A DNA stretch of 64,000 nucleotides, taken from positions 848,224 to 912,223 of the forward strand of contig CAWKFI010000004.1 in NCBI GenBank assembly GCA_963849055.1, in the 5' to 3' direction. Numbering within the stretch: position 1 is the stretch's first letter; each line of letters begins with the position of its first letter. The notes beneath the pieces are model-generated. The model did not search any database, was not told the origin of the DNA, and saw nothing but the letters and a program-made list of their open reading frames with translations. Of this stretch, positions 29,719 through 32,591 are shown one piece after another. Source of the stretch: an uncultured Actinomycetota bacterium (lineage in GTDB: Bacteria; Actinomycetota; Actinomycetes; Mycobacteriales; Mycobacteriaceae). The translations under genes were made by a program, and so were the position numbers.

Positions 29719-30049
29719 TCAGTGCCCGAGGCGGCCGCGGCCCAGGCGCAGCAGCAGCATCGCCAGGTCCTTGCCCTCGGGGCCGAGTTCGCTGAAGCGC
29801 TCGATGACCTTCATCTCGCGGCTGTGCACCAGGCGGGTGCCGCCGGAGGCCATCCGGGCCTTGCCGATGAGCCTGCGAGACCTCGGTGCGGCGCTTGACC
29901 GCGGCGAGGATCTCGGCGTCGAGCTGGTCGATCTCCTGGCGGAGCCTCGTCGATGTCGAGATCTGTCGGCGTCCAGTGATGCTGGATGAAGACATTGGTG
30001 ACTCCTGATTCTCATCTCTCGCTTGATTGTGTGGCGTTTCTGGTCTCAT
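29719..30049 (-). CDS. Cytoplasmic chorismate mutase (AroQ-delta, Rv0948c ortholog), frameshifted
   Basis: MRPETPHN..., LRQEIDQLDAEILAAVKRRTEVS, IGKARMASGGTRLVHSREMKVIERFSELGPEGKDLAMLLLRLGRGRLGH; alternative start at ATG 29995. Confidence 0.9.
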
Positions 30050-30150
30050 CCGGATTCGGGCCTCACACAAGAGACGAGCCCCGGATCCGGAAGCGGACCG
30101 CGGGGCTCTGGGAAGCAGCTAGACCACGGGCACCGCAGGCCGGTACCCGT
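30050..30150 (-). promoter_or_regulatory. Putative attenuator RNA with competing hairpins in the chorismate mutase leader
   Basis: Stem 30126-30150; stem A 30076-30108; alternative stem B pairs 30076-30090 with 30050-30064 and covers GAGG. Confidence 0.65.
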
Positions 30151-30178
30151 AAAAAAATCGTCCCTGCTGATGGAGCAC
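30119..30178 (-). CDS. Putative Phe/Tyr-rich leader peptide MLHQQGRFFYGYRPAVPVV
   Basis: GTG CTC CAT CAG CAG GGA CGA TTT TTT TAC GGG TAC CGG CCT GCG GTG CCC GTG GTC TAG; TGG-CACACT -10-like element 7 nt upstream (leaderless). Confidence 0.65.
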   Translation of the reverse strand: MLHQQGRFFYGYRPAVPVV

Positions 30179-30217
30179 GAGATCGAGTGTGCCACCAAGG
30201 GCCGCGTCGGCGCAAAG

Positions 30218-30240
30218 TGTCTCTGGTCCAGCGGTAAGTT
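30218..30240 (+). promoter_or_regulatory. Possible PafBC/RecA-NDp-type DNA-damage promoter of uvrD1
   Basis: TGTC-N13-TAAGTT; one nt longer than the recalled consensus spacing. Confidence 0.35.
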
Positions 30241-30249
30241 TGTAGGGCC

Positions 30250-32591
30250 ATGACCTCTGATCGTACTCGCCACCGAAACCGATCAGCTCCTCGAGGGGCT
30301 CAACCCGCAGCAGCGCCAGGCGGTGCTGCACGAGGGCTCGCCGCTGCTGATCGTCGCGGGCGCGGGCTCGGGCAAGACGGCGGTGCTGACCCGCCGCATC
30401 GCCTACCTGCTGGCCGCCCGCGACGTCGGCGTCGGCCAGGTCCTGGCCATCACGTTCACCAACAAGGCCGCCGCGGAGATGCGCGAGCGCGTGGTCGCAC
30501 CTGGTCGGCCCCAGCGGCCACGGTCCATGTGGGTGTCGACGTTCCACTCGACCTGCGTGCGGATCCTGCGCAACCAGGCGTCGCTGCTGCCGGGGCTGAA
30601 CTCCAACTTCTCGATCTACGACGCCGACGACTCGCGGCGCCTGCTGATGATGATCGCCAAGGACATGGGCCTCGACACCAAGCGGTACTCGCCGCGGCTG
30701 CTGGCCAACGACATCTCCAACCTGAAGAACGAGCTGATCGAGCCGCGAGCAGGCGGCAGCCGAGCGCGACGGAGGTGCGGCGAGGAACTGCCCCGCATCG
30801 TCGCCGAGGTGTACGCCGAATACCAGCGCCGGCTGCGGGCGGCCAACGCGCTGGACTTCGACGACCTGATCGGCGAGACGGTCGCTGTGCTGCAGGCCTT
30901 CCCGCAGATCGCCCAGTACTACCGGCGGCGGTTCCGGCACATCCTGGTCGACGAGTACCAGGACACCAACCACGCCCAGTACATGCTGGTGCGCGAGCTG
31001 GTCGGGCCACGCGGCCCGCGAGGACGGAGACCGCGACACCGTGCCGCCGGCCGAGCTGTGCGTGGTCGGCGACGCCGACCAGTCGATCTACGCGTTCCGC
31101 GGCGCCACGATCCGCAACATCGAGGACTTCGAGCGCGACTACCCGAACGCCACGACGATTCTGCTGGAACAGAACTACCGCTCCACCCAGAACATCCTGT
31201 CCGCGGCCAACTCCGTCATCTCCCGCAACGCCGGCCGCCGCGAGAAGCGGCTGTGGACCGATGCCGGTGAGGGCGAGCTCATCGTCGGCTACGTCGCCGA
31301 CAACGAGCACGACGAGGCCCGGTTCGTCGCCCAGGAGATCGACGCGCTCGCCGACCGCGGCGACATCACCTACAACGACGTCGCGGTGTTCTACCGCACC
31401 AACAACTCGTCCCGCGCGCTGGAAGAGGTCTTCATCCGCGCCGGCATTCCGTACAAGGTCGTCGGCGGAGTGCGGTTCTACGAGCGCAAGGAGATTCGCG
31501 ACATCGTCGCCTATCTGCGGGTGCTCGACAACCCCGGCGACGCGGTGAGCATGCGCCGGATCCTCAACACGCCGCGCCGCGGCATCGGCGACCGCGCCGA
31601 GGCGTGCGTGGCGGTCCACGCCGAGAACACCGGCGGCCAGCTTCAACGACGCACTGCAGGCCGCCGCCGAGGGCAGGGTGCCGATGCTGAACACCCGCTC
31701 GGAGAAGGCGATCGCCGCGTTCGTCGAGCTGCTCGACGAGCTGCGGGGCAAGCTTGGACGACGAGCTCGGCGACCTGGTCGAGGCGGTGCTGGACCGCAC
31801 CGGCTACCGCCGCGAGCTCGAATCATCCAGCGACCCACAGGATCTGGCGCGCCTCGACAACCTCAACGAATTGGTCAGCGTCGCACACGAATTCAGCATC
31901 GACCTGGCCAATGCCGCTGCGCTGCGGGAAGAGGCGGGCGAACAGCTGGACGAGGACATCCCCGACACCGGTGTGCTCGCCGCAGTTCCTCGAGCGGGTG
32001 TCGCTGGTCGCCGACGCCGACGAACTCCCCGAACACGGCGCGGGCGTCGTCACGATGATGACGCTGCACACCGCCAAGGGCCTGGAGTTCCCGGTCGTCT
32101 TCGTCACCGGCTGGGAGGACGGCATGTTCCCGCACATGCGGGCGCTGGGCGATCCGACCGAGCTGTCCGAGGAACGGCGGCTGGCCTACGTCGGCATCAC
32201 CCGGGCCCGGCAGCGGCTCTACCTGAGCCGCGCGAAGGTGCGCTCGTCGTGGGGCCAGCCGATGCTCAACCCGGAATCGCGGTTCCTGCGCGAGATTCCG
32301 CAGGAGCTCATCGACTGGCGCCGCGTCGAGCGCCGCGCCGTCGTTCAGCGCCCCCGTGAGCGGCGCGGGACGGTTCGGTCCCGCCCGGCCGGCGCCGACG
32401 CGAGGCGCCGCGCGGCAAGCGCCCGATGATCGTGCTGGAACCGGGCGATCGCGTCACCCACGACAAGTACGGGCTGGGCCGCGTCGAGGAGGTGTCCGGC
32501 GTGGGGGAGTCGGCGATGTCGCTCATCGACTTCGGTAGCGCGGGTCGGGTCAAGCTCATGCACAACCACGCGCCGATTCAGAAGCTTGTAG
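30250..32591 (+). CDS. uvrD1: ATP-dependent DNA helicase UvrD1/PcrA, multiple frameshifts
   Basis: AGAGSGKT, ITFTNKAA, LVDEYQDTN, VGDADQSIY, QNYRST, MTLHTAKGLEF, EERRLAYVGITRA, Tudor-like GDRVTHDKYG. Confidence 0.93.

Follow-up and report, generated by a model that had tools for sequence, protein, structure and literature searches.

The chorismate mutase gene in the DNA analysed here is preceded by a leaderless upstream open reading frame (uORF), two hairpins (P1 and A) and an alternative stem (B). From comparison of this leader with those of its relatives, we propose that it is most likely a ribosome-stalling attenuator of chorismate mutase that responds to Phe and Tyr. The element lies between the mutase gene, on the minus strand, and the divergent pcrA gene, within a window (the whole stretch of DNA that was analysed) of 64,000 nucleotides. 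Its features are the following, given in window coordinates:

30250..32429, plus strand: divergent pcrA/uvrD1 helicase gene, taken from the open reading frame list, frameshifted, end approximate
30194-30186, minus strand: extended -10 element TGG-CACACT of a leaderless promoter, 7 nt before GTG 30178
30178-30119, minus strand: leaderless uORF of 19 codons, VLHQQGRFFYGYRPAVPVV*, with GTG start at 30178 and stop TAG at 30121-30119
30149..30157, minus strand: likely control codons Phe-Phe-Tyr, with a conserved CGA Arg codon just before (30160-30158)
30150-30126, minus strand: hairpin P1 (1:2) from folding, equal to P1 of the pheA motif, holding the second Tyr codon
30094..30142, minus strand: predicted antiterminator (2:3), -18.7 kcal/mol, with the uORF stop in its loop; it takes the 5' arm of A
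30108-30076, minus strand: stem A (3:4), equal to P2 of the pheA motif, likely the OFF structure, 10 nt after the uORF stop
30064..30075, minus strand: pyrimidine-rich tail, a weak U-tract and the 5' strand of helix C, pairing downstream in folds
30050..30090, minus strand: stem B (4:6), which competes with A and is predicted to go with the antiterminator (ON); the 3' arm of A pairs 13/15 with 30064-30050
30047..30049, minus strand: upstream in-frame ATG of the annotated type, corresponding to the annotated Rv0948c start, possible minor start
30014..30033, minus strand: 3' strand of helix C from folds, upstream of the Shine-Dalgarno (SD) site
29993..30006, minus strand: AGGAG SD (30006-30002) and likely main mutase ATG (29995), matching the M. 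tuberculosis Ribo-RET start
29719..29995, minus strand: AroQ chorismate mutase gene (Rv0948c orthologue), frameshifted in the assembly

The source assembly is 5.8 Mb in size, 72% complete and rich in frameshifts. Between 26000 and 35000 of the window nearly every gene is frameshifted (pgi, aldehyde dehydrogenase, mutase, pcrA and sucC, named by reading translations), as would be seen in an unpolished long-read assembly; when public sequencing runs were compared with the stretch, the best share was 0.19. The C-terminal 52 aa of the window mutase are 94% identical to the protein of relative L005, which scores above the NF005894 and TIGR01808 cut-offs, and the 5' part of the helicase gene best matches TIGR01073. 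About 10 nt before the pcrA start (30230-30250, plus strand) a conserved motif resembles a -10 element and stands back to back with the mutase promoter, roughly 40 nt apart. Relatives retrieved with the mutase protein were mostly titled Mycobacterium or Mycolicibacterium where a genus was named. One record titled Candidatus Sericytochromatia (L133) has a typical mycobacterial mutase locus and is probably a binning error.

A preliminary description of this DNA had reported the TGG-CACACT element 7 nt before a GTG at 30178 that opens a 19-codon frame, and we confirmed all of this at the same positions. To follow the leader through evolution, relatives were chosen by the mutase gene and not by the leader, giving 122 distinct Mycobacterium-set loci; the counts from these and all other loci include kin and are hence not independent. 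The -10 hexamer was matched and followed by ATG or GTG in 118 of the 122 loci, at 6-7 nt before the start in 114. The P1 anchor was present in 110 loci, and the start was in frame with it in 106 of these across eight lengths (24 to 63 nt), the frame surviving insertions of up to 33 nt. Counted back from this nucleotide anchor, the three codons before Gly were Phe in 109, Phe in 102 and Tyr in 100 of the 110 loci; 108 loci used TTT for the first Phe, and 108 had CGA just ahead of that codon. The suggested alignment across mycobacteria thus bears out both the uORF frame and its aromatic codons.

In a rough collection of long ORFs from this frameshifted genome, TTT makes up 1102 of 24294 Phe codons (4.5%), and both uORF Phe codons are TTT in the window. 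The rarity that had been pointed out is therefore real here, but the second TTT is not conserved as TTT among relatives (TTT in 23 and TTC in 79 of 110). Since the 7-T run, whose length had been queried, agrees with these relatives, it is not a read error; the frame that these TTT and TTC loci share excludes a homopolymer artefact behind the Phe-Phe-Tyr frame. The sensor had been described as FFYGY. We restrict it to FFY because the second Tyr codon is part of the covarying P1 stem and because, outside Mycobacteriaceae, only 46 of 103 loci have F/Y at that position.

Published M. tuberculosis data agree with this start. The rows of Shell et al. (2015) place a leaderless transcription start site (TSS) at 1058093, 130 nt before the annotated Rv0948c start; the corresponding distance in the window is 129, and the orthologous TSS falls on the G of the GTG. 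The orthologous uORF is listed as novel in the table of Smith et al. (2022), with a ribosome density of 0.325 and a G/C-skew p of 0.035; together with the TSS and the conserved frame, this is indirect evidence that the uORF is translated. In a sheet labelled LZD30 of supplement 9 of PMC13236596, Rv0948c mRNA is about twofold lower, a drop that would be compatible with the leader no longer being translated and equally with a more general response.

Elsewhere in the order there were 129 mutase matches, of which 120 were retrieved. Of these 120 loci, 107 had, upstream of the mutase, a started ORF with an F/Y cluster and a stop, whereas the identical rule picked out 20 of 3000 windows drawn at random from the own genome; at this level the search pattern itself dictates how often F/Y appears at the first and third control codons. 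A -10-like hexamer stood at leaderless distance in 88 of the 107 leaders. Other families showed F/Y exchanges and YYFYY expansions at the control codons. Four other Mycobacteriaceae genera came up in the order draw and all four lacked the element; four loci of other genera that do have it were found by separate inspection.

Several departures from the common form were seen. In some loci the codons are eroded (FPY, FSY, FFD) or the element is lost. Nine loci (L046, L047, L050, L055, L056, L058, L109, L119, L127) have FPY, LSY or no Phe/Tyr with hairpins kept, as do M. avium rows of the published pheA alignment, which suggests a weakened or lost sensor in some lineages. Four mycobacteria (L023, L039, L072, L084) have most of the leader deleted and the promoter kept, and in L072 and L084 the mutase start follows closely behind it, making them natural leader-loss variants. 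In large-genome members of family f41 (L277-L282) the mutase-linked element has its aromatic codons spaced out as F/Y-x-F-T-Y, and L275 has a doubled aromatic cluster in its leader. Divergent short leaderless ORFs outside the search pattern (L141, L142, L192, L195, L233; e.g., FCFFHH and FTYAYAF cores) may be variant leaders.

P1 and stem A, the latter 10 nt past the stop, are present where they had been drawn, and the 151-nt region folds with a z of -2.86. In a covariation set of 44 distinct sequences from 14 families, 92.5% of the cells in P1 and A were paired and 11 of 21 pairs changed on both sides (5/11 in P1, 6/10 in A), a score reached by none of 500 shuffles. The covariation anticipated for the stems thus holds for A; stem B was null by swap test (14/30). 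The codons after FFY are accounted for by P1 pairing, and the residues after Gly vary freely between families while the base pairs hold.

An Rfam scan of the element gave four chance-level matches, none of them to a leader family such as Phe_leader, the Rfam family for E. coli pheL-pheA. The two hairpins are P1 and P2 of the pheA RNA motif of Actinobacteria (Weinberg et al. 2010, PMC2864571), which likewise lies upstream of the actinobacterial pheA/chorismate mutase gene and whose mycobacterial and Rhodococcus rows are nearly identical to 30160-30073. Its table gives RNA as "?", cis-regulatory as "y" and riboswitch as "n"; the motif has no Rfam number, which explains the empty scan. Its alignment of 19 rows begins at the CGA codon, and alignment, table and figure text hold no start codon, uORF, 2:3, B or C (the written commentary may mention a leader peptide). 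The earlier impression that this control had gone undescribed needs correcting to this extent, as the hairpins are a published motif and the ORF stands in a published table.

The mutase supplies only Phe and Tyr, whereas all three aromatic amino acids depend on DAHP synthase, so sensing codons would be expected to track the enzyme. A covariance model built from the element (R1) found a single site in the own genome, so no second copy, and matches in other orders, many weak ones being generic hairpins. Among its weak family matches, common terminators, tRNA ends and a ribosomal-protein leader predominated, with 4 of 13 inspected being the element. Among the best 24 class matches, all inspected, 17 lay before a mutase, 6 before a type I DAHP synthase and 1 before neither. 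When loci were picked by DAHP synthase (NF006421), 32 of 34 had the element, in two orders, and all 32 leaders contained Trp. Another 25 such loci, taken as the top scorers among 78 matches of the class draw, had the leader in 18 and Trp in 14 of these. Overall, Trp occurred in DAHP synthase-linked leaders of 11 of 12 families; 4 of 5 leaders in f34 and the one in f27 lack it. By comparison, Trp within six codons before Gly was found in none of 107 mutase-linked leaders (15 families) and in 10 of 110 from Mycobacterium; it is also present in four leaders of this kind that belong to other Mycobacteriaceae genera. The DAHP synthase-linked element was seen in at least 12 other families (L291-L322, L343-L367, L284) and was absent in five f32 and two f35 loci. 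Although these are plain counts over loci that include non-independent kin, the codons track the enzyme, and the gain of Trp before DAHP synthase is the best evidence that the codons are sensed. Together with the conserved frame and the order-wide occurrence of the uORF, it backs the original suggestion of a leaderless Phe/Tyr sensor of chorismate mutase, and we regard codon sensing by the leader as very probable.

For the switch itself, we propose that scarcity of charged tRNA-Phe or tRNA-Tyr would halt the ribosome at Phe-Phe-Tyr, freeing strand 2 to pair with strand 3 and keeping stem A from forming. B would then capture the freed 3' arm of A and hold the ON fold. With Phe and Tyr plentiful, the ribosome would reach the stop and cover strands 1 and 2, so that A could form; with no ribosome, P1 and A would form together, again OFF. 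We consider this wiring, with A as OFF and B accompanying ON, reasonably likely.

The stalled intermediate was modelled by blocking the RNA as by a ribosome on the Phe codons and folding it up to the apex of A, in 16 families (parsing succeeded for 207 of 213 loci, and Mycobacterium was represented by a sample of 31 out of 104). The 2:3 helix was predicted in all 16 families, strand 3 being paired upstream with a mean probability of 0.52-0.99 when stalled (16/16) versus 0.01-0.43 without a ribosome (14/16); in the latter state P1 suppresses 2:3 in 14 of 16. The register of 2:3 pairs at 0.74, versus at most 0.61 when slid, and the base bulged out of A in Mycobacterium is a C or U opposite a strand-2 G in 97 of 104 loci. 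Helix 2:3 covaries only weakly: two-sided changes occur in 2 of its 8 pairs, a value that 423 of 500 shuffles reach, and a one-per-family permutation gave about 0.05. After a stall the equilibrium fold still favours A (P 0.93 in Mycobacterium), and equilibrium folds of RNA ending at the U-tail or at the mutase start show little switching. Because the completed stem A is the equilibrium winner, the switch would have to be kinetic, as it is in classical attenuators.

The 13/15 pairing of stem B with 30064-30050, part of the preliminary description, was reproduced, and A and B are real alternatives with stem energies of -26.9 and -24.1 kcal/mol, respectively; in Mycobacterium, B reaches -19.7 against -11.3 for shuffled sequences. 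With A forbidden, 2:3 and B form together (-53.4 vs -57.7 kcal/mol for the free fold), which would assign B to the ON state.

In families with U-rich tails, A most likely ends transcription. Other families have U-richer tails after A, and many homologues carry a clear run of U there. The Mycobacterium tail is interrupted and holds a mean of 4.2 U in 8 nt, the commonest form occurring in 61 loci; this poor U-tract is conserved as a sequence complementary to a CACAC..GAG stretch before the SD and can also pair towards the ribosome-binding region as helix C. For this reason OFF may consist of partial termination, reduced initiation at 29995, or both. The M. tuberculosis SEnd-seq termination-site lists for standard growth (808 and 928 rows; Eckartt 2026, PMC13236596) contain no row at 10579xx-10580xx, though the TSS is listed. 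The alternative first offered for A, a terminator with a weak tail, is thus favoured by the homologues and disfavoured by the poor Mycobacterium tail and these lists. We see the mycobacterial output as about evenly balanced between termination first, as homology suggests, and a translational contribution.

The Ribo-RET data of Smith et al. (2022) did not detect the annotated Rv0948c start in M. tuberculosis and showed a start 45 nt downstream in one replicate; the literature treats MtCM as a 90-residue protein starting MNLE. The ATG at 30049, taken as the mutase start in the preliminary description, is the counterpart of the undetected start, and the detected one matches 29995. A downstream in-frame start was found in 106 of 106 Mycobacterium loci. 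As 95 of 104 loci possess the upstream ATG and 80 hold it in frame (10 of 16 distinct spacings), 30049 may serve as a second mutase start. The spacing of the two in-frame ATGs (30047-29993 in the window) varies mostly in steps of three, and in loci of the L009 type the upstream frame is shifted and there is a stop overlapping the mutase ATG.

A purely translational output in mycobacteria, with the same Phe/Tyr sensing, where A and helix C would hinder mutase initiation without termination and 2:3 with B would release it, is a possibility we hold tentatively. It overlaps with our proposal and differs only in output. The empty SEnd-seq interval is consistent with it, as are the conserved complementarity of the tail, the energy of helix C (-15.9 vs -12.4 kcal/mol shuffled, in a comparison where segments can overlap outside Mycobacterium) and the description of mycobacterial Cys leaders as translation attenuators (PMC13236596). 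Yet helix C lacks covariation by swap test (15/29). Across the 30 commonest combinations its partner strand stops 4-17 nt short of the AUG; here the distance is 17 nt, and C ends about 8 nt before the SD in this genome. Opening energies also switch inconsistently, with predicted start-site opening favouring ON in 20 of 40 Mycobacterium loci and OFF in 11; SD accessibility and opening energy together predict no consistent translational switch. A broader evolutionary reading, which we think doubtful, is that one ancestral actinobacterial attenuator chassis moved between mutase and DAHP synthase and was retuned by its codons (Phe/Tyr vs Trp/Phe/Tyr), the mycobacterial terminator tail having turned into an anti-RBS strand; the result would be a five-helix relay (P1, 2:3, A, B, C) acting on translation initiation, which may choose between two in-frame mutase starts and hence long and short isoforms.

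Regulation of the Rv0948c promoter by aromatic amino acids was reportedly only minor in M. smegmatis (Schneider et al. 2008). Such weak regulation would suit a fixed structured leader or dampener that affects RNA stability, a set-point or general translation sensing, its peptide kept mainly by the RNA stems and its U-rich codons by an RNA role. The explanation of the codons after FFY by P1, the nucleotide-level conservation of the first TTT and of CGA (108/110 each) and the non-classical behaviour described for the S. coelicolor ilvB/leuA leaders point the same way. In-frame insertions, synonymous and F/Y exchanges and the gain of Trp are, however, hard to explain without codon sensing, and we consider a fixed leader unlikely.

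The wiring first proposed was the opposite of ours: a ribosome at the stop would melt A, B would then hide the GAGG and the ATG at 30049 (OFF), and stalling would leave A intact (ON). B is indeed nearly as stable as A and beats its shuffles, the upstream ATG is widespread and often in frame, and A dominates at equilibrium after a stall. The spacer between stop and A, however, measures 9-15 nt in Mycobacterium, with a median of 10, and in other families mostly 12-22 nt; as the edge of the ribosome footprint lies about 12 nt away from the stop codon (Smith et al. 2022), a terminating ribosome should not open A. Blocking the RNA up to 18 nt from the stop did not yield B, the GAGG is predicted to be mostly paired in both states (0.04-0.25 free), and the Ribo-RET table did not detect a start matching 30049. 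Moreover, homologues end A with U-runs, and this scheme, in which 2:3 was overlooked, leaves that helix without a role, while in our folds B forms together with it. We regard it as very unlikely; the modelling indicates that the polarity is likely reversed, with A as OFF and B belonging to ON. Least probable of all is that the peptide itself acts, as an arrest peptide sensing free Phe/Tyr in the tunnel or as a trans regulator of the complex between mutase and DAHP synthase: Mycobacterium shows high conservation of RFFYGYR.AVPV and the Smith et al. (2022) table counts the ORF among those with positive G/C skew, but its residues after Gly vary freely between families while base pairs hold, and its N-terminus accepts long insertions.

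Our preferred reading, stalling on Phe-Phe-Tyr that favours 2:3 over A, has several relatives among known systems. E. coli pheL-pheA likewise places a chorismate mutase gene under leader-peptide control by charged tRNA-Phe; here, the leader is leaderless, has three control codons mixing Phe and Tyr and is followed by a weak U-tract. The C. glutamicum aroR leader of aroF is also an actinobacterial leader peptide of a shikimate-pathway gene, with FYF codons and transcription that rises under Phe limitation (Mentz 2013, PMC4046766; review PMC11802643); it differs in preceding DAHP synthase instead of mutase and in that Tyr had no effect. No aroR-type locus occurred among the 13 inspected family matches of R1, and we treat aroR as an analogue of our element. 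In the same genus, the M. tuberculosis ilvB1 attenuator has a uORF, four control codons and an antiterminator/terminator switch, but it carries a U-tract and gives an abundant terminated RNA of ~120 nt, unlike the mutase leader, which has no listed termination site in the same data (Eckartt 2026, PMC13236596). The poly-Cys uORF attenuators of mycobacteria (Canestrari 2020, 10.1101/834739) are similarly leaderless and amino-acid sensing. In contrast to these, the control codons here lie 9 codons before the stop, a terminator-like hairpin follows, and any SD masking would come from the tail after A and not from the uORF. Taken together, the element most likely works like a leader-peptide attenuator, with a putative place among transcription attenuators.

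Within the literature covered, we found no paper describing a Phe/Tyr leader at the mutase gene or joining these pieces, and no measured Phe or Tyr response of this element. A term search of 10.1101/834739 returned no mention of chorismate, tyrosine or aromatic; the main texts of PMC13236596, PMC4633059, 10.1101/834739 and 10.1101/2022.06.01.494293 do not mention chorismate or Rv0948; the passages of PMC1173090 that were covered list no such attenuator; and the Ju 2024 supplements gave no match in the 11 of 19 files covered. A 2005 survey (PMC1262725) reported no conserved RNA regulators of Phe/Tyr genes in Actinobacteria, an absence that the element contradicts across many families.

The mechanism itself is classical, and the gain of Trp before DAHP synthase is the most striking part of the picture. 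It is proposed here for an RNA motif rated ambiguous in 2010 and for an ORF listed without function in 2022. In Streptomyces-like and other producers, the leader would offer a simple handle on aromatic flux. In M. tuberculosis the mutase is scored essential in a published table row, and the mycobacterial enzyme has been discussed in terms of allosteric control through DAHP synthase; a gene-level sensor would therefore add a second layer of control.
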